From positions 10,217-74,216 of IMG/VR virus record IMGVR_UViG_3300034061_001913: a stretch of 64,000 nucleotides of DNA; one strand, given 5' to 3'. A program made the translations under genes and the position numbers. Source of the stretch: a virus. This document shows positions 29,346 through 60,743 of the stretch, one piece after another; the stretch's first letter is position 1; each line of letters begins with the position of its first letter. Under the pieces are notes generated by a model that ran no database searches, was not told the origin of the DNA, and saw only the letters and a program-made list of their open reading frames with translations.

Positions 29346-32300
29346 CTATTCAATCACGTTGTCTTCCATCTCATTTAGTAGTGCCCTTTGTTCTGAGCCT
29401 TTCCAATACAGTTCACTTTGTTTTTGCTCAATCAATCTTCTTAGAGATGTTCTGTATTCAACGTCGTCAGTTTGGCTTGCTTCAATACTCAAAGCTTTGA
29501 TTGCTTTTTTAAGCTGCTTCATGCCCTTTCGTGTTTCTTGTAGATCTTCCTCAGTAGATTGTAAATAGTATTTTGGGTTATAGTGAGTAAAGGTTCTATA
29601 TCTATATTCCGGATTAAGGAAGTAGTTCATAGACCCAGCTAGTTTACTTTGTTCTAGGAATAAAGCAACTATATTAGAGTGTCCTTTTAAAGCAGGGTTA
29701 ATTGGAACATCTTTACGATTTGATATATAACCATCTTTGTCTCTTTGTACGTATTCGTCAAATAGGTTATAAGTTTCTTGTGTAGCAAAACTATAACCCT
29801 CTCTCAACAAATCATAACTTGCTTGGTAAGGAAGCAGTACATTCTTACTAGTGTAATATTGAACTATGTTTACTTGAGTATTCTTATCAGTAACTCTTCC
29901 GTAGTATATAGAAGCAGGACTAGCAATAGGATGCAAAGTCTCTATTTCATCTATAAGATATACTAAGTTGTAGAGTGCAAAGTAAGTACCCCAGTTATCT
30001 TCGTCATCACCTGAATCTCCTTTAACTAAACCAGACAAAGCATAAGCTATAGACATAAGAGTTACAATTGCTAGTGTGTCATACAAAGCACCTCTTAATG
30101 CTCTTCTTGATGTACGATCTAAGGTTAACATATAAGCTTGTATACCTTCTTTTCCTTGGGTAAGAGCTTTAAGGAATTTATAAGACTGTTCAACAACAGC
30201 TCTATAAAAACCTTCATACTCATAACCTCCGCCATAAGAAATTCTTCTACCACCAAAACGTCTAATAGCTTGATAAGCTAACCAGCTTCTCATGTAACCG
30301 GCTAGTCTACCTAGAGCAAATCTTTTGTATTCTCCTTGGTCCATTTTTGCATAAGCTCCATTTACAACTGCTGTTATGCTATGAAGCTTTTTCATAAAGT
30401 AAGACTCTTGAGCTTTTACTTCGGCCTCATCAAACTCAGGCTTTATTCTAATCTCTCCATCTACTATTTCATAGGCATCTTTTAAGGTTCTTTGCTCACC
30501 TGACGTATTCTTGATAAAAGTCTTTTTCAAAAGGGCCTCATAGATACCAATAGTAGTTTCCATTTCAAGGAAGCTTCTTCCAAATCTAAGCAAGCTTAAT
30601 GGGCTATAAGTTTTACCTTCTCTGAAAGGATTGTTAACAATGTTTCTTAGCTTTTCATTCTGTTCTTTTGGGAACACATGGAAGTAATCAAGCATCTTAA
30701 CATAATCAGATTCTCTTCCTACACGAGTATCTCTATCGGCCAAGAACAAGTCTTTAATATGTAGTGCGCCTTCTCCCATTCCAGCAAATATGTCTCCAGG
30801 GGATAAATCAAATTCTCCTGCTTGGATTAGTGTATTTTGTAAGTTACTGAAAAAGTTCTTTATTGCAGAAGGTACGTTATAGTTCAAAGAAAGCTTTCTT
30901 CCTGCACTAAGTAATGGGTCAGACAATAAACCTATAAGTCTACCAAACTTACCGTCTCTAGTGTTTATTCCAAAGAGTTGTTTTTCATAAAGATTCTCAA
31001 TCATCTTTATGGTGTACTGTCCTTTTTCTTCTTTGCCTATTTTCTTAGAAGACAGAATATCTTCTAGACCGAATAGAGTTGGTGCGTTCTTGAGAGCTAT
31101 TTTAAACTTTTCAGCTTCGTGGTTGAACATAGTTAAAGAGGCAAATACGTTTCTGCTCTTTAAGCCTCTGTCCATATTAGAAGAGTACTTTAAATAAAGT
31201 TTTCTGTGTACTCTACTAGAAGTTTTTACACCGGCCAAGGAATCTTCGTCTTCTTCGTTAACACCTAAAACATTATCTCTAACATCTAAGTATTTTAGCC
31301 TTAATTGTTCTACAGGATTTAAAGTCAAGCCAAAGTTTGTAAACTTATCTTTTCTTACAGAAGGAAGCACTAGTCCTCTTCTTAAAGAAGCTGGCAAGTC
31401 TTGCTGGCTTTTCTGATTCATCTCAGTCAACTCTGCTAAGATTTCTCTTTCTGCAGGGTCAAGATTGTTGTATGATTCATTTACATACTGAGAAGTTGGT
31501 CTTAACTGTACTCTTCCTGGAATATATTTATAATCAGGATTAACAAACAAAGGCTTACCTGTTTGAGGATTTAGTACTTGATCGTTTACCCGGTATGAAT
31601 TCCAACGGAAAGAAGGAGTAGTTCTATTGATATATCTTTCGTCTACAACTTCATTAATAGAATCCCAAGGAAGTATCTCATTCCAGAAGTAAAGAGGTTC
31701 AAAACTCTTTATTTTTCTTCTAACCATAGGATCAAACTTCTCTACAGGAATGTGGTTAGCTTTAAACCAAGGAGACTTTTGGAAAGCAATCATTACCTCT
31801 CTATCAATAGCTGATGTGTTAAGCAAAGATTCTTTTTCATACAAAACGTTAAGGGCTTCTCTAGCTGCCATTTCTCCTATCTCTAATGCTGTTAAGTTAG
31901 GATACTTCTTTTGAGTAGCTAAGGTTGCTTCTTTTAGATACTTTTCATAGTTTAAAGCAAGGTCCGGATTTAACTGCATAAACTCAACAACTACTTGAGC
32001 CCTAGTTTGTGACAAGGCATTATTATAAGCAGCCGTATAATAATCAGTTGATTGTCTAGTTTGAATGTCATTTAACTGAGCAAACAAATCTGCAAGGATA
32101 GCTTTGTCTTCTTTAGAAACTAGCTTTGCTTTTTTGAACTCATCCATGTTAGAGTTAAGCTCTTCTTGGAGTTCCTTAATTCTAGTGCTTATATCTAAAG
32201 GAATGTTAGTACCTACATAAATACCGTTTGAATCTCTATAACCTTTAAGTAGGTTAAAGATTTCGTCCCAGATTTCTGAAGCAGTTCTAATATTTACATT

Positions 32301-34274: not shown

Positions 34275-34300
34275 GTATTTTTTTGTGTTTATTTTTCGGT

Positions 34301-34570
34301 TTACAATTTACAGCTAAGGAAGTATTCTTTTGCATCTTCCTCTGGCATATTTGGGTTTTCTTCAATAAAGTCTTCTAGCTGGTCTTCTATGGAAGGTTCC
34401 ATAGTTGTTTCTGTGGCGGTAGGTTGAGATTTAAGAAACTGTTTAAATCCTTCTATATCTTCTTTATTACCTAAAAAATTACCAGCAAACTCAAAAAAAT
34501 GAGATTTAAAATACTCATTAAATTCTGGTTGAGAGTATTTTTTATTATTATATGTTATTGTGCAAGCCAT
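34301..34570 (-). CDS. 89-aa mini cargo/linker protein
   Basis: Cys3 and Cys87; [13 protein letters not shown] resembles [13 protein letters not shown] in the 1146-aa protein. Confidence 0.65.
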
Positions 34571-35202
34571 ATTTGATTGTTCTTTATTTTGTAAATTGTT
34601 GTAATTGAAACATTAAATTTATTAGCTAATTCTTTTACTGATTTATTAGAACTTCTAATAAAAGAAACACTATCCCAATTCAATTTAGCAGAATTATTAT
34701 TCTGCCCTTTTTTAGATTCTGATAATTCTTTAGCTCTCTTTTGAGCAGCTAATTTAAGATTTAATTTATGTTCTTCTGAAAATATTTTTCCCTTACCAGA
34801 TTCAGACATTTTGTTTTTAGTTTCTTCTGAAACAGTAAATCCATAACCTCTTACAGCTTTACCTTTTCTTTTTTCTGACATTTTTTGTTTAGTTTCATCT
34901 GATGCTTTTAAACCGTAATTACTTTCTGCAATCAATCTAATGTTAAATTTATTGCTGTACTGTTTTAAAAACCATTGTTCTAATTTAATACAATATTCAG
35001 AAGGACATGTTGCTAATATTTTAAAATCTACATTTTCAATTCCATATTTATTTACAAAGTTTTGTAAGGGTTTATTTACATGAAAATTAGACCTTAATTT
35101 ATCAAAATGTGTTTTCTTTCTTAAACAAAAATTGGTTGCAGAGCCTATATAAACCCTATTATCTATTTTAGAAAATATTCCGTAAACTCCTGAATTTAAC
35201 AT
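34555..35202 (-). CDS. Free-standing GIY-YIG homing endonuclease with NUMOD3-like repeats
   Basis: GVY...YIGSA, R..H, LEQ and [10 protein letters not shown] repeats; C-terminal HTH-like segment. Confidence 0.9.
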
Positions 35203-38200
35203 ACTCTATCTATTTTACCAGTTTCTATTAATCTGTTTTCTATTTCCATAGAAGACTTGTTTATAATAAATTGTCTGAATTGTTCATAAGTTCCATATTT
35301 AGCAAATTCGCTATTTTCAAAAGCCATGTAATTTTTGAAACCTTGAATATCAGTTTTAGATAAAAGTATATGTATTTGTTCTGGTTCAAATACTATAATT
35401 TGTTCTTCGTTAATTCCAAAAGTTTCTTTTTCATCCACATCTTTTGCAATTACCGCATCATGAACCTTTATCCATTTTTGTACATTCTGCTTATTCCAAT
35501 TATTTATCCATTCTGGGTTTTCCTTAGTATTAATCTGTTCTTCCGCTACTATTTGTCCTATTTCCTTCCAATGAGTTTCTTCTTTTATTATTCTTGGATT
35601 TTTAATATTAAGCAAAATAGGATAAATAGTTTCTTTATATTTATCTTTTACACTTTTTTGATATTCTTTATTTGATGCAATTTCTTCATTTTCATCGTAT
35701 TTTTCTGAAATTTCAGTGTCTATTCTGTCTTGTGTTCTAAAAGAAGAGTATCTTTCAGCAGTTTCTTTATTTCCAAACCAATATCCTCTAATATTATTTG
35801 GAGCTTTAAAATTTTCAATATTAGGATTACTTGTACCATGATAAACAATATCTTTTACTTGACTATCAGGAAAGATAGTATCTAAATACTGAGAGTATGC
35901 TTGTAAAGCTTGTTGTTTTTGCTCTGGGGTTATTGAAGAAAAGACTTCGTTATTACCATCAAAGACTCCTACAGTTCCTTGTATGGTATCAGTTAATGGT
36001 TGTACTTTGTCTAGATTCTTTTGTATCTCTTCGTTGCTTTCAAAAGGTTTTACTCCTTTAGCAGTTGATAGTGTGATGTGAGGGAATCTGTTTTTAGACA
36101 AAGGATTGTCTACAAGTAAAACATCTACTTTATATGTGGTAAGTCTTCCTACTATCTTAATCTCTTTGTTTTGTCCTATAGGAAGTCCGGTTAGATCACT
36201 TGGTTTAAATTCAATAGTAGAATGATGTGAGTACAGATTAGGATGAACTTGTTTGTATTTTGAAACTACATCATTTGTATCAAAGAACACAGCACTATAT
36301 ACAACGTTAGTTGCTTTAGGTTTAAACCCTAATGCTTCGTACACTTGATTAGCCAACTCAAAGTCAGAGTCAAATAGCTCTTCTAGTCCTGGTTTGATGA
36401 TTACAGATTCTTTTTTTGTAGGAAGCTGGTAATACATTAATCGACTCTTTAAGTCAACAGGTGCTTCTATAGTGTCGCTAAACGGTTTCCACTTTTGGTA
36501 ATCGTAGGAATCTTTAGGTCTGCCCATAGTAGATTGCTTTTCATAAAAAGACTCCGAGAAGTGATTGAGGGTTAATCCATACTCTTTCTCTGCTATAACA
36601 GTATACTCGCTAGAATCTCTAGGAGACAAGAAGAAGTCAAACAAGTACATCTTGGCAAGTTCTTCTTCGGTGTAGTTAGAAAGTCTTTTATTAAAAGAAC
36701 CAGTATAGCTTTTAAAACGGTCTTTGAGGCTTTGGTCTTCTGACCATATTGCATTTATTGTAACGTAGTTAACACCAGCTTTGTTATTGTTGTAAGCATA
36801 AAGAAACTCGGTGTCTGGGTACTGTTGTTTAAGTTCTCTTAAAACAGGAATTTTTTGTGCTAGTTTTTCAGCGTTTATTCTTACGTAGCCAAGGTTGCCT
36901 CTGATTTCAGAAATGTCTTTTGTTAACTCAACAAAATCTTCTATATCTAAAGAAATGCCGTGAATGTTTTGAGGAACTACATTATCTATATCATGTAAAG
37001 CATCTATATTAGGTCTGTATGTTTCTCCTTGGTAACGGTAAGACAAGCTTCCAGTAATGATCATGCCGTGGTCTGAAAACCATTTCATGAATTTTAACGC
37101 TTTTCCACCATCTTTTTTATTCTGTTGTTTTATAGTTTCAGAATAAGAGAGCAGATTGTAGTTAGCAGTACTTCTTTGAATCCTGTCTAGCTTTTTGTAG
37201 TTGTTATTAAGAATGTCTCTAGCAATAGAATCTGCTGCAGTGTTCAAAGAAACATAAGGAACAGTGTCTAACAAGCTAAACACATAGTCAATAAGCTCTT
37301 TTACTTTGGCCCAGAAGGTTTTTGATTTATCCATACCTTCATAGTTTCTTACTAGAGCCAAACCAATAACTTGTCCTATAGCTTCTTTTTTAATCCTAAA
37401 GTAATCAGGATTGCCTAGAGGTGTAACATACAAATTCTTATAGTCATTAACGACTCTTTCATATCCTTCCCAAGATTCTATGTTATCAAATAGATATGTA
37501 ATCAAAGGGTTCTCTGATTTTTTACCTGGGATGGCTCCTAGTAGTTCAACAAAGACGTGACCGTATTCTTCTGGCACAGTAAGAAGGTTTCGATTTTTTG
37601 CATAATAAACCGCTTTATTCAAAACGTCAAATACACCAGTGCTGTCTACACCAAACCTATCTTTTAGGCTTTCTATTTCTTCGTTTTTAATGTGGAACCT
37701 TTCAAAGTATTTGATAAGCAAGTTTTCCAACTCTTTGTTAATAGGTTCTAGAATTGCTTTATAATACTGTTCGTTAGAGTTTTTTTCAAACTGTTTTATG
37801 TAAAAGTTTAAAATTTCAGAAACCTTTAAGGTTCTAAGCTGTGGGTTATTATTTACCAACTCTAAGAACTCTTGTCTTAGTTTAGTATCAACCCCTGCTT
37901 TCTTTAAGACCTCGTTTAGATTTTTTTCGGAACCTATACCTAGTACAGATTTGTTTATTGACCGAAGTTTAGTGTTTAATTCATCAATACTATTAAAGAG
38001 ATTTCTAATTTGAAAGAATTTCATTTGGCCGGTTTCATCCATAATAGGCCCAATCTTTTGTTCAGTACCTCTAACTTCAGAACTTTCTACTAACTCTTGT
38101 GCTGGAGGAAACAGATCTAAAGCAATATCAGCAATCTCTTGACCTACCATACTCAAAGCAGTTGTTGCTTCACTAGGGGAAGCTGTTAACTGTTGGGACA

Positions 38201-38636
38201 ATTCAAGTAAACCTTCCTCTACAGTAGAGGGGTCTTTTAATGCAACAGCTCCTATAGCATTGATGTTCTGTGCTAACTTAACTACTTTATCTAGCTTTTC
38301 TTGTTTAATACTCTCTAGCTTTACCACTTCTTTTCTTCTTTTCTCTAGAGCATCAACCACAGAGTTGTTGTAAACCCAACGAGTTGTTGTGTATGTTTTA
38401 CTAAAACCATATACATCAGGCCTTAAACCCTTTACCTCTGAAGTTTGAGTAGTAAGAACTTCTCCTTCTATAGATACTCCAAGCTGTTCTTTTAGCTTAC
38501 GAGAAAACTCTTGGTTGAATAAACCAAAGTATTTTCTATCTAAGATAATGTTGCCATCGACTATAGGCTTTTGTCTATCATTTACATAACTTTTTATATT
38601 GTCTGATATTACAGTATGTATGTTACATTCTTTCAT
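35196..38636 (-). CDS. Polyvalent cargo protein: zincin-like, nucleotidyltransferase, 2H phosphoesterase and ADP-ribosyltransferase domains
   Basis: EEYGH; ITGS...HDID; HST...PHIT; VYHGT...GYWF...LNIKNP...[11 protein letters not shown]. Confidence 0.72.
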
Positions 38637-38655
38637 TCTTTTGTTGCTTTATTAC

Positions 38656-44600: not shown

Positions 44601-46728
44601 TCCTATACTTTCTGTTAGCGTCTACTGCAAACTGGTTGTCTAGTTGTTCTTTTACTTTAGCTCCTCCAGTAGTATTAAGCTCAAACAAGTCCATTTCATA
44701 AACGGTAACAGGGCCACCTTTACTTGCAACTGTTTTAGCTTTAACTCTTAGTCCCCAAGGAACAATTCTTGGAAGAGACATAGACTGTTTAAAGGCTTGG
44801 ATAAGTTGTAGGTCTTGGTCAGTAGTTGCTTTCTCAGTACTCTCTGGTAACTGTTTTAATAAGTAACTAAACTGAGGAAACTCTTTTGACAACTCTTTTA
44901 CCTTTTCTATCATTTCCTCATAGGAAACTTTTCCTGACAAGGCATTCAATAGAATGTTGTAGTTAGTGTTGTATTCTCCAGAAAGAGGAAGCATAAACTC
45001 GCTACCTCTAGCTAAAGCTGGAGTTCCATCTACAGACATATCAGGGTCTATTTTAGGCAGACCTTTAATGATAGAAATAATAATAGGAGATGCTACCTCT
45101 TTAGGGTTTATATCTGCTGCGGTTTTGTTTTCAAAATCTTTTGAAGAACGGCCTCTCTCGTTTTCATCTTCAGGAGTCATTGCAGACTCTACCATGTTTT
45201 CATAGTCGGCCAGTTCTTTATTTAGAAACTTACCATGCCATGATTTAATGTCATTCCACATATTGATGACATTAAAAAGATTCACTAGCTCGTTTCCAAC
45301 ACTATCAGGATCTTCTAGGTATAAAGCTTTTCTTTCCTCAAACAAAGCAGTTAGAGAATCTTTCATTCTATCATACACTTGTTTTTTGTACTCTCCTCGA
45401 TTAAGAGACAAGAGGTCAGAAACTTTTAAGCCTAAATCATTTAAAGCTTGGTAGAACATATAGTTCAAAGAACTTACTAGTTCTGCACCTTCAAGAGAGT
45501 CAAACTCTAACTTATCTATAACTGCTACTCTATAGTTGTTGTTGCCTAGGTTAACTAAACGAACTACAGTATCATCTAAAAGTTTATATACACCGTCTTT
45601 GTAGTTTTGGTCTAACTGTATTTCTCGAAGACCATTCTTAATTGCCAGATTAATACTGTCATCTAGTCTAAGTATCATATCTGTATAGAACTCTTCTGAG
45701 AAAGATTTAGACAAATTTAGACTTGCCCATTCATTATGTTCGAAGTTTTGTTGGGCGTTTATTTTACCGGTTTTAAGAACACTAAACCATTCTTCAACTA
45801 TACCCTTAGACTCTTGTGCTGTTTTTCCTTTAAAGATGTAGTTAAATAGATCAACAATCTTTTTGAATAGCTTTTCAAGAAACGTCCTTTGTGGAGTATA
45901 CTCGTCTTTAGCATTCAACATATACTCTCTAAACTCTTCTGCTAAAACTTCTTCTGCTTGCTTTCTAGTTAGTTGACGATATGGAATCTCAACCCCATTA
46001 AAGCTATAAGTTCCTACTCTGTTTCGAACCTCTGCATAGATAACGTTTCTTTGTGCTTGAGTTAAATAAGTCTGAGTAAAGTTGTGCCAGGCTTCATGAT
46101 ACAAATCAGTATAGTCGGAACCATTATATAGAATAGTAGCATTTGCAGTCCACTGAGCTAAAGAATTGTTATTAGCAATTCTTGTTGCTACAACAAGAGG
46201 AGTAGCTTTAGATAACTCATTAGTTCTGAACCACATTAAACCCCTAGCTTGTTGTGCTGCTGTGGGTTTCATACGTTTACGATACTCTCTTTCTTCTTTT
46301 ATGTTTCTTTTGTCTGAAGCGTTTAAATCGACTTTGATAGTCTGAAGACTTTCCATGTCCTTAAAAGCACTCTCCAAAAGATTCTCTACAGTCTTTTTGT
46401 TGTTTTGTTCCAAGAAAGACTGCATAACAGAAAACTGACTAGGCTTAGGTAGTTTGTTTTGTTTGGCTTCAGAAAACACTTTTTCAGAATAAGCCTTATA
46501 GTTGTCACCTAAAGCAACTGCTTTTAGCTGTAAAGCTTTAGCTCTACTTCCAGTATTATCATAAAGGTCTTCAAAGAAAAAATCTCTTTCCCCGGTAGGA
46601 GTTTTATCTAAGGAGTGTCCGTTATTGACATCCCAAAAATAATATGCAAGAGATTCACCTACTACATTTTCTAACTCAGAGAATTCTTTTTTGATTTGAG
46701 GATCACTGAGTAAAGGACATATCGACAT
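38656..46728 (-). CDS. crAss-like virion two-barrel RNA polymerase with an N-terminal zincin-like domain
   Basis: VRIPVQG...SGSDFDIDKLF (about 41413-41436), KR, DAQ and VDAEK motifs; HEAWH...EEVLAE near the N-terminus. Confidence 0.92.
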   Translation of the reverse strand: MSICPLLSDPQIKKEFSELENVVGESLAYYFWDVNNGHSLDKTPTGERDFFFEDLYDNTGSRAKALQLKAVALGDNYKAYSEKVFSEAKQNKLPKPSQFSVMQSFLEQNNKKTVENLLESAFKDMESLQTIKVDLNASDKRNIKEEREYRKRMKPTAAQQARGLMWFRTNELSKATPLVVATRIANNNSLAQWTANATILYNGSDYTDLYHEAWHNFTQTYLTQAQRNVIYAEVRNRVGTYSFNGVEIPYRQLTRKQAEEVLAEEFREYMLNAKDEYTPQRTFLEKLFKKIVDLFNYIFKGKTAQESKGIVEEWFSVLKTGKINAQQNFEHNEWASLNLSKSFSEEFYTDMILRLDDSINLAIKNGLREIQLDQNYKDGVYKLLDDTVVRLVNLGNNNYRVAVIDKLEFDSLEGAELVSSLNYMFYQALNDLGLKVSDLLSLNRGEYKKQVYDRMKDSLTALFEERKALYLEDPDSVGNELVNLFNVINMWNDIKSWHGKFLNKELADYENMVESAMTPEDENERGRSSKDFENKTAADINPKEVASPIIISIIKGLPKIDPDMSVDGTPALARGSEFMLPLSGEYNTNYNILLNALSGKVSYEEMIEKVKELSKEFPQFSYLLKQLPESTEKATTDQDLQLIQAFKQSMSLPRIVPWGLRVKAKTVASKGGPVTVYEMDLFELNTTGGAKVKEQLDNQFAVDANRKYRIEDPKTGEIILNTKAIVQDYTKFFDSYPDVLSVDGKTIYTFFNDVFNMDFTPYAETAKLKSRKADLSELAIQTFARIIAQETLYSANKVEGILRPLGRLTTNYSKAVLSVFQSMGINTSLVQKEDKFKIQNIKSTANNILSLYDDLKQFYGDQSYINIEGELQWGMHQWNELSYKINRINAAKTVEDLQENEQTRSMVTNGFFTSSVFMKKLFGENGKKRNRGVENEKEELSLLGWQGMSIQGNSDTTRGSKAVDLSPEDKLAYDFFSFLKIRLVENLRFGAKSSAYSIQFKGNKKNITLFPEESFTEEYAPEFMSAMIGYLRYEMDQIKNARREEDRKFVIFDGILSPELESQLKQNAIEGKGFRDYGKAVREEIADYFNNAIDKHYEALKYSLLKNFNTLSPENQDKEMVRAFAKLMPNENITNAQWIKDKLKFYLTNYFVHQTEIVHLFVGNPRNYQTKGKGYKEVFKRLGFTSSPGRQPLVSQEFFNKLQTLGITRELEQISTQAERAYNSEIKVVVAKDLGPHQNNKESVMKYFEIQILKEVEATKGIDSKEYKELSNTKSNKLKDLVKARYQDYANQKKEADAQAWGNLDFVRVYLKSIDRWSPTLEEAYKKEVEIYRLYKEIKESRGKKKASGRITSFEDLGETLEGKQARLEDLINSVGIGLIPSLKTGLYGAELNNPEDTLLGKFSLHTLLPSVVIGAGLGSTDLADVMESMFESGTDIITFGSGQKMAFPYPEYEIYDKDMKVNKISPNIVGTYSIEGLREQQYIAPKFKEEATLSTQLVKLLFGDFFENGEFSEDYPEEFAPIVEEARKAFVDSIRHTVELEQLDMAKAMGITLDKGKVVGVDKNKFYKWLQKEAEKQDIREDFFSFLQTESEKEDPLSLDSLSYRNVAERIFVSALNKKLIRPKLNGEPYIQTASTGYSQKGGRFKNPTPEQLEEFGVNNLRNYRIENGKVQPADVKIAFNPNKHAALLNLNYKGAKIADLKRLNEALMDDAWVEANKEKITIVGVRIPVQGHNSIEMFRVREFLPTSAGPVIIVNPDIVTKSGSDFDIDKLFMYEPSYNEDGQLFDIPYSVEEYNKNLKALEGYQELISVVVEQMDALEVEMRNNSYFDSYKFYNTLYAKDKAILHKLYNLKFKPTTQKGKEVKERIAIFKQDIIEAKKAAAEARKEGDLDTLFFAKFEKLQASYKELVGFIKDLKKVPEGMLATSHNNFVKAVSNMMSQPIMFKSLTAPNNNDYLHSFIVDFYNRVEEQKGSSKRYTNVEDISKKIRGAEIFMPMTSTRIQREVVGAKSPLGISAKINAMHKLFQQSGLRFVDPFYNLYFLPARRDENNFITLGNRYTVDNVLISDVGSQFINGSVDAEKEDWINRIFADKVRTALYHQMVTLNGSSMESAVVLLLQPVMNEFFRESKQGKFKQAVSGKLSSKDAMFVDFLEKTIARVDSKLKVMKKSEKGRPVLDLKATISKILTNHGPKILSDLNFETAFTRMPPSIKNVAETKFSTTLAKRELTAEDKDFLLKQLVTLAQYYVVEKQNSAVVTLNQNLDLNTTTFQSGQAMYNQYKFIKEGTIENQPVNEIFNQKALDYIVKESVVSPFNVSNFGNTVLENVLAITGNPKYKEVVASHMEALLATKYRYLVRGKKAESYIRNFNDDFILSLFWNYGGVGDLSVEQALPISLLQKNNPNSLMDRWIKMTESKEESYTWIMENISFAKYLFFRKVDITNPKNKRVKTYYYPVLIQTGSNDAVDAFNNELTGLINNFQGDTEEITQDVRKFFFELAMGVMAHQGFKLQRNTLQSIISASISAPYFNNAIQNFLPYINAEKNTDNDKKFQEYIISFLENEYDQLERKKVSSLYIKNFGLDQVNNVLQSEVSTDEFEFFEDFGEEYDENFQGDYGQSFDDVWFIPESELGQQPASPKQKLTLPGKEKKADERKQPSRGKLKLSDASLGQSLNNIEDKDKISCNKGKKPS

Positions 46729-46754
46729 ATTTATTAGTTATTTACTTTGTAAAG

Positions 46755-49700
46755 TTATATTGTATTTGACTTTTTTCGTATCCTGCTTTGATTATTTTTT
46801 GCGTTTTTCTCACAATTGTTTTTCTGCTTTTCAGCAGCTTCAATTTGCTGTACGGTAAGACTAGCAGCAAGTGGACTATAGTTTTCTTTTTCCTCTTGAC
46901 TTAGTTCAGGTTCGGCTTCTTGTGTAGGTGCAACTTCTAAAGCATTTAATTCTGTAAACAGCGCATTCACAAAGTCTTTTATACCTTTAGATTTAAGTTG
47001 ACTTGGTGCTCTATTGAACGAGTCTTTACCTTCATAAAGAGTGCTTATCATATCATATAAAGCAGATATAACACTTTCCTTAGCCTGCTCAAACGCTTGA
47101 GGAGTATTGCCAAACTGAGAAGCTAACAATTTTATTCCTGCTTCTACACTTGTATTTTTAAAAATACTCTCTTTATTGTTTTCTAGATATTCTTTTAATC
47201 CAAGATTAAACAGTACTTCTTTCTTATTATAAGTTTTTACTTGATCTGCTTTATTTAAGAAAGAAGGGAAGCTAGTAGTCACTTCAACTTTAGTATCTGT
47301 TTCTTTAGTTATTGTACCTAGTTCGTATTTTAATCCTACTAATGAACCAGAAGTAGAAGCAGCTTTTTGTTCAACAGGTTCACTTTTTTTACCAGCTAAC
47401 TCTTGTTCAATCAAATAGCTAATTCCTGCAAAAAACCTAATATCACTTCCTGGGTCTGTAAGATACTTACTTAATCCTGTAAAAGAACCGCCATCAGGAT
47501 AGATAGTTGTTGTTTCTCCATTTTCAAAGGTAACATCAAATGTGTGTTGAGGTTTTGCATCTTTTAGTCCTTCTCTTGTAACAATTTGTGTTTCTTCAAC
47601 ATTGATCTTTATTTCTTTTATTCCTCCAAGTGTATCAATTACTTTTTTTGCAAACTCTTTTCTTTTGCTTTCTTCAATTCTTGTAGGATTAAAGTCTGTT
47701 ACAATAGTTTCAGCAGGTTTAGCTTCTACAGGAACTATGTCATAAACATATAGCTTTCCTTTTCCATTAACCCAGTCTTTAGTTTGTTTGTACATAAAAT
47801 CATTTTCAGACTTTACACCCTCAGACTTAATTATTGCATCTTTACCACCAGCTTCTTCAATTGTAAGGGCCCCTCTATTTGTTACCTTAAAATCTTGACC
47901 GTCAAAATTTACAATAGCAGATTGACCTACAGGTATATTAATTTGTTTAGCTTGAGCAGCACTTCTTACAGTAGTTGTTTTTACTCCCGCTTTTATTTTT
48001 TTAATGTTGTCTGGTTGCATTTGTATTTCAACCTTACTTTCTGTAGCGGGGGCAACAGTTTCTAGAGCAGCTAGTTCTGCATCATACTTAGCATTAATTT
48101 CTTCTGTAGAAGGTAGTAATTCTTTCCAATTAGGTAATAAATCATTCAGCTCTTCTATTGAGTAAGCACCTCTTCTTATTAATGTGTCTAATGTTTGGTA
48201 ATTAGCCCCTTCTCTATCATCATTATTATATGCTTTTTCAACTATCTCTCTTGTTACATATCTTTGAATGTCTCCTCTAACTTTAGCTCTATTATCTCTA
48301 AGTATTGGTATAGAATATACTTCATTTTTAACTGTAGAACCATTATTGTTTTTTAATTCCTCTTGTCTTCTTTCTTCAATAGCAGCTTTAGCATCTGTAG
48401 AAACAGGAGCAGGAGCTTCTTCTGCAGGTTGAAGAGTGACTACTTGTTTTGTGCGAAGTTTTGGTTTTGCGTTTTCTTGCAAAGAAGGAATAACAAGAGT
48501 TTTATCTACCGGTATTGGAAGTGCAGGTTGTCCATTTTCTGTAAGAATGGTTGCTGAAGTAACATTAAAGGTTTCTTCATCCTTAAAGGACAACTTTATG
48601 TACATTATATTCAAACCAGGAGTAATACCATACTGTCTAGCAAACATTACACCATAGGAGTTCTGTTGGCTTATGTGTTCTGATTTAGGATTCTCTGCCA
48701 TACTAACATAACCATTGGCTTCACTGCTATAACCTAGTATATTTTCTTTAACCTTCTTATACCACTTAGATGTTTTAAAGTCAACTATATCCACTTCTCC
48801 GGTTTCTTTGTTGATGAGAAGCATATCTATTGCACCAGCAATTTTAGCATCTTCATCCCAAAGAATAATTTCATCAGTGTTTATAATGTAGTTGTCTTTT
48901 AACGCATTGTAAATAACAGTAGCTTGGTTTGTTATAAACTTAAAAGCAGCTGCAGATAATAAATCTGGTTTAGTTGGAGTCCTACCTGCAAAAACATCTC
49001 TAAGAATTGTGTCTATAGCTCTACCAACTGTAGTTGCTCTCTTTGTAGCAAAAGACTCTTTGTCTCCTCCAAAGTCTATCTCAGAAGAAACTCTTTCGTA
49101 ACGGTTTCCGTCAATTAAATAATAAGAAACTTCTTTACCGTTTTCGTCTACCTCTTCAACTAGTTCTGCTCTTTTTTTGTTTTTAGCTATCTTGTCTAGC
49201 AACTCTTGGTTTCCTGGAGCTTGTCTCTTACTATCAAGAATAGCAAGAGCTTCGTCGGTTTGGTCCTCAGTCAATTGCTCTTCTGCATCTTTTAGACTTA
49301 GTTTACCTGCAGGACCTTTCTTTTTAGCTGGTGTTTGTTGAGGTCCTGTTTTAGCTTTTGGTTGAGGAGCAGCTTTTGTCTTAGAAATAGAAACCCCCAT
49401 ATCAAATATGATTCTTTGGTTTCTTCTTACACCCGGAGTGTTTCCTGTCATGTAAACTTTGTTGGTTGATTTAACAAAGTCTACATAAGTTTGGTCTTTA
49501 ACCTTTACTACTTCACCTTCTTGCATAGAGAATCTAGGGACCATAGAGTTTACTTCTCCTTTAGATACGTTATAATACAACTCTTTAAATAACTTGGTGA
49601 GTTGTTCTTGGTTAAGTTGTGAGCCACTAACTCCAGGAATAAAAGGAACAAGTTCTTGAGTTTCTTGGTCAAAAGCAAAAACTACTTTTCTTCCTTGCTT

Positions 49701-52700
49701 TTGATATATGTTAAGTGTCTTAGCAATGTGTTGTTTAAGTTTTTCAGCTTCTTCTGCTGCATCTTCTCCTGGAAAAAACTGTTCTCTAAGAGTCTTGTCA
49801 AATACCATAGCAGCTAAAGCTTCTGCTTCTAGCTCATCTACTTTGTCGTTCATCAAAACAACTGGGCTATCATTAACTACAATAAAGGTTTGTCCAGGAA
49901 CACCTGCTATAGTTTCATTGCCTAGTTTTTGTTTTGCATTCTTTAAAACCTGTATGTTCTCTTCTGTTACTTCTAGTCCACTTTCTTGTAAAGGAACTAG
50001 AGTTTCTGTTGCAGTTATAAAAGTTCCCTGAGTAATTCTGCTGATAGGGAAGTCTTCTGAATGGGTAGGATCTGTTTTAATTTTTTTGGCTAATTTTACA
50101 ACAGCCTCTTTTATAGGAACAAATTGTTGAAGTTCTGCTACTCTTTCACCTAAGATGTTTTCCCAATAAGGAAGTCGCTTAGTGTCTTCTTTTTCTAGAA
50201 TCTGAGGATCGCTATCTATGTTAGTATAGAAGGGATAACCGTCAAACGATTGTATAGCTCCTGCAGAGTTAACAATTGTTAAGATTGGGTCCGAAAGATT
50301 GGCTCCATTCCTTTCTACCATATACAATAACTCTGGAAGGTTTCTTCCGGAGCTAAGAGTTTGTTCAAAGAAGTCTTCTCCAAAGAAGTCGTTTAGTTGT
50401 TTAAGCATAGGAGCAATCTGCTCTGCTTTTTTTGCTGGAGAACCTTTAATTGCTTTGTAAGCTTCATGAGCTTCATTAAGTAAGTTTACAAAGTCTTGGA
50501 AGTCTAAACCTTGGTTGGCAGCAAGCTGTTGTAGGAAGTTTAGCCTAGAAGTGATTCTTACTTTAAATGTACTGTAATCTTGTTGAACAAGAAACCTTAA
50601 AATGTTTGCATTTCTTTGAATCGCAGGATCTTTGGAAAGTTCGTTATTCTCAGGCACTTCAAAACCATAAGTAGAAGAAGGTATCTGCAATTGTATTACA
50701 GCATTCTGTCTTTCTACTAACGCTTTCTCTTTTGGAGTTGCTTCTGCATTGGCTTGTTGTTGTAGTGGGGTTTGCGGAGGAGCATCTTCTAATGTTAGTT
50801 TAGAAGATTTTTTTGGAGACGGAGCTTCTTCTTCCTCTGTTTTTGGTTGAATGCTTTTTCTCTTTTTATTAACTAGAAAGAACTTTGCAGCATATTTGGC
50901 CAAATCAAAAACACCAGTTATTTTATCTCTATACTGAGAAGGTACAGCATCTAATATAGCTTTACTTTCAGAAAGCATTTTATTAGAGTCATAAACTCCA
51001 GTTACAGTATTTGATATAAACTCTACTATCTTAGCCCAAATAACCGGGTCAGCTTTAATCTTAGCTAACTCTAACATGTCTTTTGTCTTCCTAATAAGTT
51101 TATTAGCAAAAGCTTCTTTAGATAAAGTGCTAGTTTTGTCGTTTGTCTTATTGTGTTTTTCAAAAAGGTTTGCAATAAACGTATCGTCGAATTTACCATC
51201 CTCACCTACATTTTGTCTAGTCTCTAAACCTTTCTGTTCTTCTGGAGTAAAAGCATCCCTTTCCTGGTCCTCTGTTTCTACTTCAACTGGGGCTTCGCTA
51301 GCAGCAGCTTGTTGTTTTCTTTCTTCTACTCTTTTTCCTAATGCTTTTTCTTTTGCAGCATCAAAAGTTTCTTGACTAATCTCTGGCACAAGTACCTCTC
51401 CAGTCTGTGGATTTTGTAAAGTAAAGGCTTTTTTTAGAGTCTCTAATTCAAATAAAGAGTCAAGGTTGGTATCTGCAGCTTCTTTCAAGATTTCAACAAG
51501 AGCTTCCTCTTTTTGTTCTTGAGGCAATTGTACAAAGTCATAAATCTTTTGAACTCTATTCTGTTCATAGCTAGCCATTAATTGTGCATAGTCTTCTTCA
51601 TTGACAAAATCTGCATTGGCTTTTAGGTTTTTAATTCTATTTTGGCTTTGAAATACAGAGTCACCAGAAACATCTTCTTCCAAAAGGTCTTCCGTAAATT
51701 TGTTTCTTCCGGTCTCAGGATTAATTGCTATCTCTTGACCTAGTTTTTCTTCCAAAGCCTGAATCAAAGCTTGTCTACCAGTTTGCTCTGTTTTGTATTT
51801 AGGAGGCATGGTTTTTACAAACTCTAACTGCTGCGTAATTTCTACTATACGGTCACTTATAACTTTAGGGTTACTTAGAGTTTGTACAGAATCAATTTGT
51901 TCTTGGAAAAGCTTTGCAACAGTTTTTTCCTTTTCCTCATCTGTCATATTAACAAACTGGTCAACTCTCTTCTTATTTTTTAAGATGCTCTTGTCTACAC
52001 TTTTAATCTCTTCTAAAAGGTCTTCTGGAGAGTTTTTAAAGTTGTCCTCTTTTAAGATACCTAGATCTACTAACTTTTTCTTTTCAGCCTGAGTAAACTC
52101 ATGGGTAGAGACAAATGTAACATTCTTCATAGTCTCTAAATAAGCTTTTTCTTGTTGGTCCTCTTTAGTTAAAGTTTCTTGCTTAGATAGTTCTTCTAAC
52201 CGTTCATTTGCTGACTCTTCAAAAAGTTTAATGAGTCTTGTATTTTTTAACGCTTTCTTTTGCTCATCGTTCAGTTCTTCATAGTTTATACTCTGTAGTT
52301 TGTTTTTGTACAAAACATCATGGAAGTATTTTTTCTGTGCATCTTTATCTGAGAGAAGAGTTCTTAAATCTTTTATGTTTGCAAATTCTGGAATAGAATC
52401 TAAGATAGACTTAGCCTCTGCAACAACCTGCAAAGCTTGAGCTGCTTGTTCCGGAGTGTATTTCTTTTTATTAAGTAACTCTTTAATTTTAACTTTATAG
52501 TGGTCTGGGTTATTAGCCATATCCCACAAAGTCTCATGTTCAGGTCCTAATTTATTTCTAGCAGCAGCTTGCTGTATTCCTACCCCTAAAAGACTATAGG
52601 GAGCCATACCTGCTAAAGAGTCTAGAAAAGTTTGTACTACATCTGTTGGTGTAAACTCATCTTCTTTTTTATAACTTTCATCCCCAGACTTTATCATTTT

Positions 52701-54668
52701 CCCTAGAAGGTAGTTTCCATAAAGAGACATCTCTTCTTCTAAAGATTCAGTAATACTTTGAGTTGCAGCTAACTTTCCTACTCTAGCACTATTCAACATA
52801 AAGTTTGTAAGCTTTTGAGTTGTAGTTGCTCCAAGAGGAGTAAACATACTTAAAAGTCCTCTAGCTACAGATTGGTCAAATCTTGTAGCACTAAACATAC
52901 CTACTTCAGGAGCACCTATAGCTTCTGTTAATCCTTCTACTACAGATCTACCAAAAGCACGTTTAGAAGCAACATCTCTGTCTTTAGTCCACCTAAGTTC
53001 ATCTTGGTACATATTACTATAAACACTTCCGGTAACTAGACCAAAAGTACTTACTCTATCTGCAAGTCTTAGTCCATTCCAAGCATTTACTGCATTCCAT
53101 CGTTTTCCAAAAGAAGAAGCAAATTTTCCTGCAGTTCCTAAAAAACCAGCAGCTTTACTAGCTCTTGCTAACTTACCCCCAACACCTTTAGTTACTGCAT
53201 CAAGTATTAAGATAGGAGCCATTTGTCCTATTACTGCAGCAGAAAGTTCTGGAATAGCTCCAGAGTTAAAACCTAAACTACCATCTTTTTTTGTATAAGT
53301 AAATTGGTTTGAAAGAATTAAGTTTCCATACTTATCAATGTCTAATGTGCCGTCTTTGTTTAAGTCTACTGGAACAGGACCATATTTTATATCATTACCA
53401 AGATGCTGTGCGTCTGGTTCATATTCATAAAAAGGAGTATAATAACTAACTATAGAACGAAACCCTCTACCAATTTGTATCCTAAATTGAGCTATAGACC
53501 TTTCAAACTTGTTATAAGTATCAATGTCGTAATCTTTGTTGCTGTTAGATACTCTTTTGTTTATGTTATCTAAGGCAGTTTCATAGTCTTTGATAGCTTC
53601 TACATTTCCAGTATCTGCTAGAGTCTTCATTTCTTTGTAGAAATAGTTAGCTATTCCATTTAAAGTTCTGTCCTCTAAACTTTTTGCAACAACTCTTTCA
53701 GACTCTGTAAGGTCTGCACCTGATAATATTTTTTCTCTGTCTTCTGGTTTTAATGTGTATATGTCTTCACCAGGTGAAGCATTCTCAAAAGCAAATGATT
53801 GCATTGCTTTTACAAATAAATCATTGTCTTTCCAAGATTTATTTGGGTCAAACAATTTATTAAACTGAGTTGCAGAGTTATTAGTATACCTTTGAAAAGG
53901 GTCTTTGATAGCAAACTCTCTGTACTCTTCTAAAAATTTCTTGCCTAAGTAAGGCGCTTTCATTTCGCCTAGCTTTTTTTGAATACCAGAAAATACAGAC
54001 TCAATCTTATTAACATCTTTAGTGTTTGTTTTGATAGCATCTTCAAACTCTGCAGGATATTTAGAAGGGTCTGGAAGAATGTAATCTCTTTCAGCACCAA
54101 AACTTCTTTTCATAGAACTGATTGTATTACGAGTACTGTATATCTCGTCTGCTAATCTAGTTTGGTAATCAATAGCCTTTGTACTATAATTATCTATCTC
54201 TTCTGCAATTTTATTAAAAGCAACAATATTGTCATCATTAACACCTTCTTTTTCTAAGTCAGTTATACTTTTGTAAAGATTGTCTACAATTAAAGACTTT
54301 CCTAGGTTTTGAGCATAAGTGCCTCTAGTGTCTACTACAGGTTTTATTCCAAAAGGAGGAGGTGTAGCTTGTCTTTTAGGTACAATGTTGTCTAAAAAAT
54401 AATTTGCAGACTCTATTTGTTGAGGAGTTACATTAACAGTTGTACCAGGAAAGTCTAGCAACTCTGTTAATGCCCCTCTTAAATTTAACGCAGGTACTTC
54501 TGCTTGCTTTGCTTTAGCTTGTGCTATTCTTTGTTCAGGAGTTCCATGTATAGCATCAGACATAGCTTGCTGTCTGTACAGTCTTTCCCCAACAGTTTTT
54601 CTTCCTTGTTGGTTTTGAGATACATACTTGTCTATACCCCTATTGAAGTTTTCTAACTTATTAGGCAT
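46755..54668 (-). CDS. Giant virion cargo protein (2637 aa) with C-terminal PD-(D/E)XK and ASCH-like modules
   Basis: IAGAIDMLL...IVDFKT...Q...Y; IKAGVKTTTVRS; hydrophobic G/A-rich segments in the N-terminal third. Confidence 0.75.
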   Translation of the reverse strand: MPNKLENFNRGIDKYVSQNQQGRKTVGERLYRQQAMSDAIHGTPEQRIAQAKAKQAEVPALNLRGALTELLDFPGTTVNVTPQQIESANYFLDNIVPKRQATPPPFGIKPVVDTRGTYAQNLGKSLIVDNLYKSITDLEKEGVNDDNIVAFNKIAEEIDNYSTKAIDYQTRLADEIYSTRNTISSMKRSFGAERDYILPDPSKYPAEFEDAIKTNTKDVNKIESVFSGIQKKLGEMKAPYLGKKFLEEYREFAIKDPFQRYTNNSATQFNKLFDPNKSWKDNDLFVKAMQSFAFENASPGEDIYTLKPEDREKILSGADLTESERVVAKSLEDRTLNGIANYFYKEMKTLADTGNVEAIKDYETALDNINKRVSNSNKDYDIDTYNKFERSIAQFRIQIGRGFRSIVSYYTPFYEYEPDAQHLGNDIKYGPVPVDLNKDGTLDIDKYGNLILSNQFTYTKKDGSLGFNSGAIPELSAAVIGQMAPILILDAVTKGVGGKLARASKAAGFLGTAGKFASSFGKRWNAVNAWNGLRLADRVSTFGLVTGSVYSNMYQDELRWTKDRDVASKRAFGRSVVEGLTEAIGAPEVGMFSATRFDQSVARGLLSMFTPLGATTTQKLTNFMLNSARVGKLAATQSITESLEEEMSLYGNYLLGKMIKSGDESYKKEDEFTPTDVVQTFLDSLAGMAPYSLLGVGIQQAAARNKLGPEHETLWDMANNPDHYKVKIKELLNKKKYTPEQAAQALQVVAEAKSILDSIPEFANIKDLRTLLSDKDAQKKYFHDVLYKNKLQSINYEELNDEQKKALKNTRLIKLFEESANERLEELSKQETLTKEDQQEKAYLETMKNVTFVSTHEFTQAEKKKLVDLGILKEDNFKNSPEDLLEEIKSVDKSILKNKKRVDQFVNMTDEEKEKTVAKLFQEQIDSVQTLSNPKVISDRIVEITQQLEFVKTMPPKYKTEQTGRQALIQALEEKLGQEIAINPETGRNKFTEDLLEEDVSGDSVFQSQNRIKNLKANADFVNEEDYAQLMASYEQNRVQKIYDFVQLPQEQKEEALVEILKEAADTNLDSLFELETLKKAFTLQNPQTGEVLVPEISQETFDAAKEKALGKRVEERKQQAAASEAPVEVETEDQERDAFTPEEQKGLETRQNVGEDGKFDDTFIANLFEKHNKTNDKTSTLSKEAFANKLIRKTKDMLELAKIKADPVIWAKIVEFISNTVTGVYDSNKMLSESKAILDAVPSQYRDKITGVFDLAKYAAKFFLVNKKRKSIQPKTEEEEAPSPKKSSKLTLEDAPPQTPLQQQANAEATPKEKALVERQNAVIQLQIPSSTYGFEVPENNELSKDPAIQRNANILRFLVQQDYSTFKVRITSRLNFLQQLAANQGLDFQDFVNLLNEAHEAYKAIKGSPAKKAEQIAPMLKQLNDFFGEDFFEQTLSSGRNLPELLYMVERNGANLSDPILTIVNSAGAIQSFDGYPFYTNIDSDPQILEKEDTKRLPYWENILGERVAELQQFVPIKEAVVKLAKKIKTDPTHSEDFPISRITQGTFITATETLVPLQESGLEVTEENIQVLKNAKQKLGNETIAGVPGQTFIVVNDSPVVLMNDKVDELEAEALAAMVFDKTLREQFFPGEDAAEEAEKLKQHIAKTLNIYQKQGRKVVFAFDQETQELVPFIPGVSGSQLNQEQLTKLFKELYYNVSKGEVNSMVPRFSMQEGEVVKVKDQTYVDFVKSTNKVYMTGNTPGVRRNQRIIFDMGVSISKTKAAPQPKAKTGPQQTPAKKKGPAGKLSLKDAEEQLTEDQTDEALAILDSKRQAPGNQELLDKIAKNKKRAELVEEVDENGKEVSYYLIDGNRYERVSSEIDFGGDKESFATKRATTVGRAIDTILRDVFAGRTPTKPDLLSAAAFKFITNQATVIYNALKDNYIINTDEIILWDEDAKIAGAIDMLLINKETGEVDIVDFKTSKWYKKVKENILGYSSEANGYVSMAENPKSEHISQQNSYGVMFARQYGITPGLNIMYIKLSFKDEETFNVTSATILTENGQPALPIPVDKTLVIPSLQENAKPKLRTKQVVTLQPAEEAPAPVSTDAKAAIEERRQEELKNNNGSTVKNEVYSIPILRDNRAKVRGDIQRYVTREIVEKAYNNDDREGANYQTLDTLIRRGAYSIEELNDLLPNWKELLPSTEEINAKYDAELAALETVAPATESKVEIQMQPDNIKKIKAGVKTTTVRSAAQAKQINIPVGQSAIVNFDGQDFKVTNRGALTIEEAGGKDAIIKSEGVKSENDFMYKQTKDWVNGKGKLYVYDIVPVEAKPAETIVTDFNPTRIEESKRKEFAKKVIDTLGGIKEIKINVEETQIVTREGLKDAKPQHTFDVTFENGETTTIYPDGGSFTGLSKYLTDPGSDIRFFAGISYLIEQELAGKKSEPVEQKAASTSGSLVGLKYELGTITKETDTKVEVTTSFPSFLNKADQVKTYNKKEVLFNLGLKEYLENNKESIFKNTSVEAGIKLLASQFGNTPQAFEQAKESVISALYDMISTLYEGKDSFNRAPSQLKSKGIKDFVNALFTELNALEVAPTQEAEPELSQEEKENYSPLAASLTVQQIEAAEKQKNNCEKNAKNNQSRIRKKSNTI

Positions 54669-56566: not shown

Positions 56567-56572
56567 ATTGAT

Positions 56573-59458: not shown

Positions 59459-59509
59459 AACTTAAAAAGTTAAATAATAAAAACGGAAATGTAACGATTT
59501 CCGTTATTA

Positions 59510-59539
59510 CAAAAATAAATGAAAATTAGAAAAAGTCAA
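59510..59539 (-). promoter_or_regulatory. Bacteroidota-type promoter upstream of the cargo/RNAP operon
   Basis: Minus strand TTG(ACT)-N19-TATTTTTG. Confidence 0.7.
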
Positions 59540-59671
59540 GTTTTTCTTTTAGGTAATAGGGTTCAGGTATATAATTTTCTTTGTTAATATAGTAACCACT
59601 ATTTTTATGATAAGCTAGTCTAGTCTCAAAATAATTAAAAGTTTTAAATAAGTGTTCTATTTTATAAAACC

Positions 59672-59836
59672 TTACTTACCTTGTCTTCTATAGGGTTTCT
59701 TATAATTCTTTGAAGATTTCAAACCTGAGTTCTTCTTCTTAGAGACAACTCCCTTACGTTTTACTTTTGATTTTACTTTCTTCGTAGGTACACCAAGTGA
59801 ACTCTTGGTAGATCCTTTTGCTTTAGATGGAGCCAT
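59672..59836 (-). CDS. 54-aa highly basic protein missing from the track
   Basis: MAPSKAKGSTKSSLGVPTKKVKSKVKRKGVVSKKKNSGLKSSKNYKKPYRRQGK; no acidic residues. Confidence 0.75.
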   Translation of the reverse strand: MAPSKAKGSTKSSLGVPTKKVKSKVKRKGVVSKKKNSGLKSSKNYKKPYRRQGK

Positions 59837-59854
59837 TTGATTTTATATTAGTTG

Positions 59855-60118
59855 TTAATAGTTAGATTTCATGTATGCTTGTTTGAGCATACCTTTATTT
59901 CCAGTAGGTTTAGTATACATACTAAGTCCATCCTTACCTCTTCTCTTAGCCATAGCTTTAAAAGTCTTGGCAAGGTTATATCTTTTAGAACCTTTAGGGC
60001 AAGTAGGTCCACCAAATTTAGCACCGGTGCATACACCTTCTGTCCCACGTTTTTTAATTCCTTTTACAACACCGGAAATCCAATTCTTTCCGCCTTTTTT
60101 AAATTGTTGAGTTTGCAT
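59855..60118 (-). CDS. Small basic protein
   Basis: FKKGG...CTGAKFGGPTCP...YNLAKTFKAM. Confidence 0.7.
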   Translation of the reverse strand: MQTQQFKKGGKNWISGVVKGIKKRGTEGVCTGAKFGGPTCPKGSKRYNLAKTFKAMAKRRGKDGLSMYTKPTGNKGMLKQAYMKSNY

Positions 60119-60743
60119 ATTTATTTAATATTAGTTGTGTTACTTTTACTTTGTCATTTTCATGTTGTTCAGCATGGCATTTTCCACAAAGTAAAATACC
60201 ATTAGTTATTTCAAACCTAAGTTCCGGATGGCTTGAAAATGGTTTTATGTGATGTGCAGATAAAAAAGTTGTGTCATTACATGTTTGACAACATTTGTCT
60301 CTTCTTTTAACTTCAGTGGCCCAAGTCTTTAACCTGGCTTTTACTTTCCTTTTTTCGTCTTTGTATCCTTTATAGTTACCATTAAGTTCTCCAACCCTAA
60401 AGGAAGCTAAGTGTCCTAAATGTTTTGACAAACATTCTTTAGAACAAAACTTTGATGTTTCTTTTCTTTTTAGATTTACAAAATATTTTTGGTTACAGAT
60501 ACCACAATCTAGACTTACTTGTTTAGTACTAGATTTAGAAAAACACTCAGACGAACAATACTTAGAATTTTTATTGTGATATTTTTTATGGAACTCTTTA
60601 GAGCAAAATAAACAAGTTTTTGTATTTAACTGTATTTTAAGTTTATCTGAACACTCTCGACTACAACAATGGTGTTTGCTTCTTTTGTACCAACAATGAG
60701 GAATGTTGTATTCTTTACTACAGTAATCACAAGAAACTATCAT
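60099..60743 (-). CDS. Free-standing HNH endonuclease with three N-terminal CxxC...CSxxC repeats
   Basis: CQTC...AHHIKP...NGILLCGKCH. Confidence 0.85.
   Translation of the reverse strand: MIVSCDYCSKEYNIPHCWYKRSKHHCCSRECSDKLKIQLNTKTCLFCSKEFHKKYHNKNSKYCSSECFSKSSTKQVSLDCGICNQKYFVNLKRKETSKFCSKECLSKHLGHLASFRVGELNGNYKGYKDEKRKVKARLKTWATEVKRRDKCCQTCNDTTFLSAHHIKPFSSHPELRFEITNGILLCGKCHAEQHENDKVKVTQLILNKYANSTI

Follow-up and report, generated by a model that had tools for sequence, protein, structure and literature searches.

Paired terminal cysteines point to end-to-end joining of virion cargo proteins in a crassvirus RNA polymerase module

We analyzed a window of 64,000 nucleotides from an uncultured phage (positions 10,217 to 74,216 of the 74-kb IMG/VR contig IMGVR_UViG_3300034061_001913), with a focus on five proteins of a virion RNA polymerase (RNAP) module that are encoded on the minus strand at 29346-54668 and whose only cysteines lie near the chain ends. 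The giant genes are co-directional and encode, in this order, proteins of 961, 621 and 2637 amino acids (aa), the RNAP, and proteins of 1146, 89 and 1642 aa. The first chain member, P1 (2637 aa; 46755..54668), assigned to the RNAP module by position only, has C2619 as its sole cysteine (codon 46812-46814); it lies 19 residues from the end, is followed by a basic tail of 18 residues, and has no N-terminal counterpart. The second is the virion-type two-barrel RNAP (2690 aa; 38656..46728), with C4 (46717-46719), the DFDID motif (41416-41430) and C2683 (38680-38682). Next comes a polyvalent effector module (1146 aa; 35196..38636), which has C4 (38625-38627) and C1146, its last residue (35199-35201), then an adaptor (89 aa; 34301..34570), with C3 (34562-34564) and C87 (34310-34312), and finally the last chain member (1642 aa; 29346..34274), which has C4 (34263-34265) and no C-terminal cysteine. 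The gene for a GIY-YIG homing endonuclease (215 aa; 34555..35202, same strand) is located between the tail of the effector module and the head of the adaptor; its product has three internal cysteines and is outside the chain.

A script count found 8 cysteines in the 8,204 residues of the five proteins, none of them internal, and reproduced every position given in a preliminary description of this DNA, which had arranged them in four facing tail-to-head pairs with the first N-terminus and the last C-terminus free; this arrangement is exact. The cysteine offsets at the four junctions (tail/head) are -19/4, -8/4, -1/3 and -3/4, the signature of an end-to-end disulfide of the type found in phage A4 and considered below. 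The plus-strand arm of the window, described earlier as normal in cysteine content, has 106 cysteines in 6,063 residues (1.75%). At this density 144 cysteines would be expected in the chain proteins, versus the 8 observed, and the probability that all 8 fall in the terminal zones under random placement is ~1.5e-15. The genes for the 2690-, 1146- and 1642-aa proteins have no alternative in-frame ATG, GTG or TTG within 80 codons; therefore, their head cysteines are independent of doubtful start codons.

The earlier assignment of the RNAP held as well. The catalytic motif DFDID is present at residues 1767-1771, residues 1386-1821 match phi14:2 g066 (BLASTP E = 1.3e-13), and tblastn matches this protein and many other crassvirus RNAPs, in 98 crassvirus records; judged by these similarities, the 2690-aa protein is a crAss-type single-chain two-barrel virion RNAP. 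Its N-terminal region has a His-Glu-x-x-His motif at residues 211-215 (window ~46084-46098), where the majority consensus of a five-RNAP alignment is Tyr-His-Glu-Ala-x-His. The motif may be a remnant of a zincin-like peptidase; Iyer et al. 2017 (PMC5512222) noted a comparable peptidase domain in N4 vRNAP. The C-terminal part of the 1642-aa protein resembles crAss001 gp49 (BLASTP E = 1.5e-7). The 1146-aa protein has a central, highly conserved NTase-like domain and an ART-PolyVal-like domain; its match to Pfam ART-PolyVal PF18760 is 30.9 bits (E = 5.3e-7), just below the gathering cut-off of 31.2, and PF18760 is present in many of its homologues. PHROGs and Pfam searches gave no match for four of the five chain proteins, and they identified the skipped gene as GIY-YIG, as described (PHROG 6e-26, Pfam GIY-YIG 1.6e-7). 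No phage-encoded thiol oxidase or thioredoxin was found among ten other window proteins, where the matches were to replication enzymes only.

Close relatives were not found in public phage records by megablast, by tblastn with the 1146-aa protein or by an exact-peptide scan of IMG/VR, and relatives of the window were reached only via protein and profile searches. We called open reading frames (ORFs) in 84 related IMG/VR loci (L numbers below designate these and further loci compared), which together with the window and phi14:2 yielded 86 RNAPs; these formed 63 clusters at 60% RNAP identity. The 63 clusters contain 117 complete giant ORFs with 299,266 aa and 175 cysteines, of which 72 occupy positions 3-6, 67 lie among the final 20 residues (mostly -1 to -5) and only 36 are internal, so that the internal cysteine density is 0.012%, versus 1.62% in control ORFs. 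Among junctions of cluster representatives, 88 have both tail and head cysteines, 10 have the tail only, 11 the head only and 90 neither; a tail cysteine thus strongly predicts a head cysteine in the next ORF (odds ratio 72, p = 5.5e-32). The 21 discordant junctions mostly involve small inserted ORFs (several of them GIY-YIG by Pfam), a cysteine at -19, one start miscall and unrelated, Cys-rich fibre-like proteins. Cysteine at -19 occurs, in addition to P1 of the window, in L011, which is one of the nearest P1 relatives with the same kind of tail; the other is L009, with cysteine at -9.

The same pattern emerges for individual proteins. A tail cysteine is present in 55 of 56 RNAP-bearing ORFs, and C4 and C2683, together with the catalytic GSDFDxDK, are among the columns that do not vary in the five-RNAP alignment (~20% identity). 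Nearly all of the 114 homologues of the 1146-aa protein (650-1,980 aa) carry a single cysteine near the N-terminus (positions 3-7), near the C-terminus (-1 to -4) or at each of the two, and internal cysteines are almost absent. In phi14:2, the fit is exact: the only cysteine of g067 is at -1 and that of g065 is C3, and the RNAP, g066, carries both C3 and C-2. In crAss001, gp47 has only C-3, gp50 has C5, C-9 and one internal cysteine, and gp49 has only C5; the gp47 gene lies 11.6 kb away from the gp50 start and on the other strand. Terminal pairs are kept in cr111_1 (Steigviridae) and in cr6_1, cr4_1 and cr109_1 (Suoliviridae, with TAG recoded), and in crAss002 (Intestiviridae) gp32 has a single cysteine at -2. 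Such breadth in the compared sequences indicates that the terminal cysteine rule is order-wide, and neither due to chance nor local. In crAss002 (L098, MN917146; 15243-15341), gp33 is the RNAP fused to the last protein, and its start has probably been annotated 32 codons upstream of the true one; the head rule would be obeyed by translation from an internal Met-Ser-Cys, in front of which lies an AT-rich leader.

The terminal pairs track gene splits across the orthologous operons and are absent at fusions. P1 and the RNAP form one ORF in 26 clusters (3,800-4,900 aa), and there the P1|RNAP junction pair is absent; the fusion in L025, for example, has 4,665 aa and a single cysteine. Over at least 7 independent changes between split and fused on the RNAP tree, the N-terminal cysteine of the RNAP-bearing ORF goes with the split state. 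In L083, the RNAP ORF is long enough for a fusion with the next protein, P3, and the tail cysteine is absent. Conversely, L088, which is split and sister to the fused L073, has a new P1|RNAP junction that copies its own RNAP|P3 tail and head. In L044 (4469-17469), P1 (2,044 aa) is Cys-free and the RNAP lacks the head cysteine, whereas the RNAP tail cysteine and the P3 head cysteine are retained. Since fusions, coupled losses and new splits affect facing cysteines together, pairing between neighbors is the only scheme that fits. P1 and RNAP of L044 are separate ORFs with a gap of 243 nucleotides, and this is the one clear survey case of a split without a cysteine pair.

A homing-endonuclease cassette has split, in the window, a protein that is intact in a relative, and there the fourth link arose. 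In P0001, which is 86% identical to the 1146-aa protein, the sequence runs unbroken into the tail that in the window is held by the 89-aa protein. The window has a cassette that is absent from P0001, consisting of a different tail ending in cysteine, the GIY-YIG gene and a head domain starting Met-Ala-Cys. In the adaptor, a Cys-x-Ile-x-Tyr-type head domain is joined to the ancestral C-terminal tail, which ends in SCKL. Adaptor residues 17-89 align with the C-terminal end of the unsplit P0001, and the N-termini of the proteins after the homologous homing endonuclease gene (HEG) match adaptor residues 1-44 to 1-68 in L002 and L031 and residues 3-82 in L003. In these three loci (L002 13613-14400, L003 15777-16600, L031 10024-10800; in the window, 34301-35202) the GIY-YIG endonucleases are homologous to that of the window (29-36% identity), and the same head domain, Met-x-Cys-[Lys/Thr]-Ile-[Ile/Thr]-Tyr, always lies directly downstream of the endonuclease gene. 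This recurrence suggests joint movement of the endonuclease and its connector-coding flanks. Because the tail/HEG/head cassette sits at the split, the 1146|89 split brought a ready-made connector and left the chain unbroken. A group I intron around the HEG was considered and rejected, as the HEG ORF overlaps both neighboring genes and leaves no room for an intron core.

Upstream of the chain (54701..63661, minus strand) are the genes of the 621-, 961- and 973-aa virion proteins, whose position is that of the crAss001 cargo proteins; the script count confirmed that they have 0 cysteines, as described, and they are outside the chain. A gene for an HNH endonuclease (60099-60743, minus strand; 214 aa with 19 cysteines) lies between the Cys-free 973- and 961-aa genes and overlaps the stop of the former. 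At the contig end, a truncated virion-region ORF (63655-63999, minus strand) has cysteine as its last residue (tail Arg-Arg-Arg-Trp-Lys-Cys). This cysteine is unpaired, the next protein lacking an N-terminal one; a similar basic tail ending in cysteine is found in L014 and another in L062.

A physical precedent for such pairs exists. The cryo-EM structure of the cyanopodophage A4 (Anabaena phage A-4L), which is unrelated to the crassviruses, contains the C-terminal helix of gp27 inserted into gp26, with a disulfide Cys1715-Cys5 (PNAS 2025, PMC12002296). The single cysteine of A-4L gp27 (1,717 aa) is at -3, and that of gp26 (1,114 aa), the product of the next gene, is at position 5; because a pair with the same signature is a disulfide there, we read the terminal pairs as disulfide links. 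Disulfides do form in crassvirus particles, namely in gp57, the tail hub and the ring proteins of crAss001 (PMC10172136). By analogy with A4, disulfides in the chain proteins are likely.

We also co-folded tails with N-termini. Aligned RNAP tails and P3 heads gave an ipSAE interface score of 0.43 (runs 0.43, 0.43, 0.50), versus 0.01 for the best control; the runs agree in at least 40% of contacts, with a partner pLDDT (model confidence) of at least 51. Of 80 solved complexes, 58 attained the pass mark, as did 2 of 110 mismatched pairs; at scores up to 0.60, only 7 of the 80 solved complexes and both passing mismatches did so. Our own alignments were used, and these counts are only roughly valid. 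The models thus weakly support docking of the RNAP tail on the P3 head. The model of the head domain is confident only for residues 1-40 (pLDDT 74-82; mean pLDDT 59), where an extended N-terminus is followed by two helices, and its profile found nothing among PDB sequences (best E = 0.06).

Taken together, we favor, with a probability of roughly 60%, the reading that four disulfides in the mature virion join P1, the RNAP and the 1146-, 89- and 1642-aa proteins into one string that is ejected and can be taken apart by reduction. Each disulfide would link the tail cysteine of one protein to the cysteine at position 3-4 of the next one. The tail segment and the small N-terminal head domain would dock first, and the cysteine pair would lock the joint under oxidizing conditions, yielding an unbranched string of ~8,200 residues. 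Such a string would be the split-gene counterpart of the single fusion proteins (4,000-4,900 aa) in related phages, and comparable to the one-piece 3,500-aa RNAP of N4. The purge of other cysteines would prevent wrong cross-links and allow the string to partly unfold; links only a few residues from the chain ends would keep the joints thin enough for the portal and tail, and thiol reductants of the host cell would separate the parts. Two components of this scheme are more tentative than the bonds themselves: threading in gene order may occur, at odds slightly short of even, and the same holds for reductive release. More doubtful still, a tail (a short C-terminal segment ending in cysteine) and a head (an N-terminal domain of ~40 aa that starts with cysteine) could form a portable, self-recognizing, redox-releasable connector, copied or HEG-borne, by which giant injected polyproteins are split and reshuffled and still remain one covalent thread.

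Several points weigh against this reading. Experiments on crassviruses show neither a disulfide nor another covalent bond between cargo proteins; reducing agents (dithiothreitol) were present in the published gels and purifications. Because the cytoplasm in which virions assemble is reducing, bond formation would have to await packaging or lysis, and the partners would first have to dock non-covalently, for which the co-folding support is weak. Reductive release cannot be essential in every lineage, as the link in fused relatives is not reducible. The P1 cysteine, 19 residues from the end, would leave a longer side stub than elsewhere. The A4 bond sits in an ordered pre-ejectosome ring, and thus suggests a structural lock rather than a thread. 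Finally, gut Suoliviridae fusions (L090, L091, L095, L008) keep 5-8 internal cysteines per 4,300-4,650 aa, and therefore the purge is not absolute. Most environmental relatives (L009-L088, mostly environmental) have no internal cysteines, in contrast to the gut Suoliviridae; it may be speculated that the purge is relaxed in an anoxic habitat. Of the head-to-tail joining proposed in the preliminary description, comparison strongly supports the pairing (conserved, lost in a coupled manner, absent at fusions, renewed at new splits and with an analogue in A4); disulfide chemistry in these proteins is likely, and ordered ejection and release by reduction are tentative.

The main rival, which we consider unlikely, keeps the disulfides and assigns them a structural role: they would hold together a fixed complex in the head (a pre-ejectosome or a 1:1:1 RNAP module), ensuring equal packaging and stability, with no part in threading. 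The A4 bond, which stabilizes an ordered ring around the portal, is consistent with this, and so are the estimated equal copy numbers of crAss001 gp47, gp49 and gp50 and the duplication of tail and head in L088, where they behave as a docking pair that can be copied as one unit. However, the RNAP-associated cargo of crAss001 is not resolved as an ordered structure. A structural lock would require neither cysteines within ~5 residues of the ends in almost every lineage nor the removal of every internal cysteine, and the equivalence with single-chain fusions is better accommodated by a linear string.

It is improbable that the terminal cysteines serve other chemistry, i.e., bridging of a metal ion, acylation or lipidation, contact with another virion part or recognition during packaging. 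The window ORF at 63655-63999 ends in a cysteine with no facing partner, and T7 gp14 (L094 1729-2319), whose paired proteins gp15 and gp16 have none, has a lone Cys2; both leave room for such roles. Nevertheless, a metal site usually needs more than a single cysteine from each side, and these cysteines are not accompanied by any conserved His or Asp. A packaging or lipid signal would not vanish from both neighbors together at fusions, nor would every lineage lack it at the two outer ends, the first N-terminus and the last C-terminus, and the same signature in A4 is a disulfide.

A different pairing, in which each middle protein closes on itself through its own N- and C-terminal cysteines and P1 bonds with the last protein, is permitted by the parity of N- and C-terminal cysteines alone, and is very improbable: fusions and losses always remove the facing cysteines and leave the next junction intact (L025, L044, L083 and the 26 fused clusters), and new splits add tail and head together. 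We therefore reject intramolecular and other pairing schemes on the pattern of coupled losses. Nucleotide signals at the junctions, split inteins and coincidence in proteins poor in cysteine are hardly credible as the source of the pairs: although the two codons lie no more than ~30-60 nucleotides apart in most genomes, the crAss001 gp47/gp50 pair is kept across 11.6 kb and a strand switch and thus is not a feature of the DNA junction, so that a DNA-level signal is rejected by this inverted arrangement; cysteine positions and flanking sequences vary widely; chance amounts to ~1e-15 in the window alone; and the 0-18 residues after the tail cysteine and 2-5 before the head cysteine exclude a split intein, which needs an N-intein of ~100 aa and a C-intein of ~35 aa.

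The terminal cysteines are not mentioned in the literature searched on crassvirus structure and RNAP, on N4 and on polyvalent proteins (PMC5512222), and the A4 paper (PMC12002296) was the only report found of a disulfide in a pre-ejectosome. The preliminary description had considered the arrangement undescribed; this has to be modified for a single link, A4 gp27-gp26, published in 2025, and persists for a multi-link chain with an RNAP, which we did not find in the crassvirus, N4 and polyvalent-protein papers. New here are the multi-link chain that includes the RNAP, the order-wide rule and the proposed spread via portable connectors. Crassviruses are the most abundant human gut viruses, and the rule bears on the packing and injection of their ~5 MDa of protein, of which the RNAP is part. 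By stating which end goes to which, it provides a concrete and cheaply testable model of cargo order and stoichiometry, and it explains the free variation of gene boundaries in the module, fused versus split. In annotation, start codons and chain membership can be checked against the rule, as with the start of crAss002 gp33. The small natural connector pair also suggests itself for reversible linking of proteins and, if the portable-connector reading is true, would represent a natural modular system of protein joining and delivery.

In comparison with known systems, A4 (A-4L) shares with the window consecutive genes for large ejection proteins, with cysteine at -3 in the upstream and at 5 in the downstream product and no others. 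A4, in contrast to the window, has one link rather than four, lacks an RNAP and belongs to the family Saffermanviridae. A4 gp26 and gp27 have no BLASTP match to the window proteins at E <= 1e-3, and the resemblance, as far as sequence comparison goes, is one of design and not of descent; in the A4 paper (PMC12002296), the bond is given as a detail of one structure rather than as a general rule. The N4 and T7 counterparts are large proteins ejected through a podovirus tail (N4 gp50, gp51 and gp52 and T7 gp15 and gp16 have 0 cysteines); the chain proteins, likewise large and putatively ejected, are free of internal cysteines. Because cysteine removal is common to such ejected podovirus proteins, the terminal pairs are the special feature; they are absent in N4 and T7, and N4 achieves continuity by a single polypeptide of 3,500 aa. 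For the N4 vRNAP, a beads-on-a-string arrangement has been described, the protein being unfolded or loosely folded while in the head (PMC13434306).

Further counterparts are known from cultured crassviruses, phi14:2 g067-g066-g065 and crAss001 gp47-gp50-gp49, which have a homologous RNAP (DFDxD), the same gene order and the same cysteine rule. The window has five members versus three in these phages, the last protein being split into the 1146-, 89- and 1642-aa proteins. The RNAP-module proteins of phi14:2 and crAss001 were found in virions by mass spectrometry; the statement in the preliminary description that packaging and delivery of the cargo are established is thus valid for these two phages with respect to virion packaging, and not for the uncultured phage of the window. 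Fused RNAP polyproteins (cr53_1 gp57, cr4_1 gp26, L025) have the same domains in the same order and keep the last junction pair, and differ in that P1 and the RNAP are one chain and the P1|RNAP cysteine pair is absent. The 1146-aa member combines unrelated enzyme domains, as polyvalent proteins do (Iyer et al. 2017, PMC5512222), with ART-PolyVal at a borderline score, and is encoded among virion genes. The polyvalent proteins described in that paper are single polypeptides, with cysteines unmentioned, whereas the modules of the window are encoded by separate genes and apparently re-joined at their ends.

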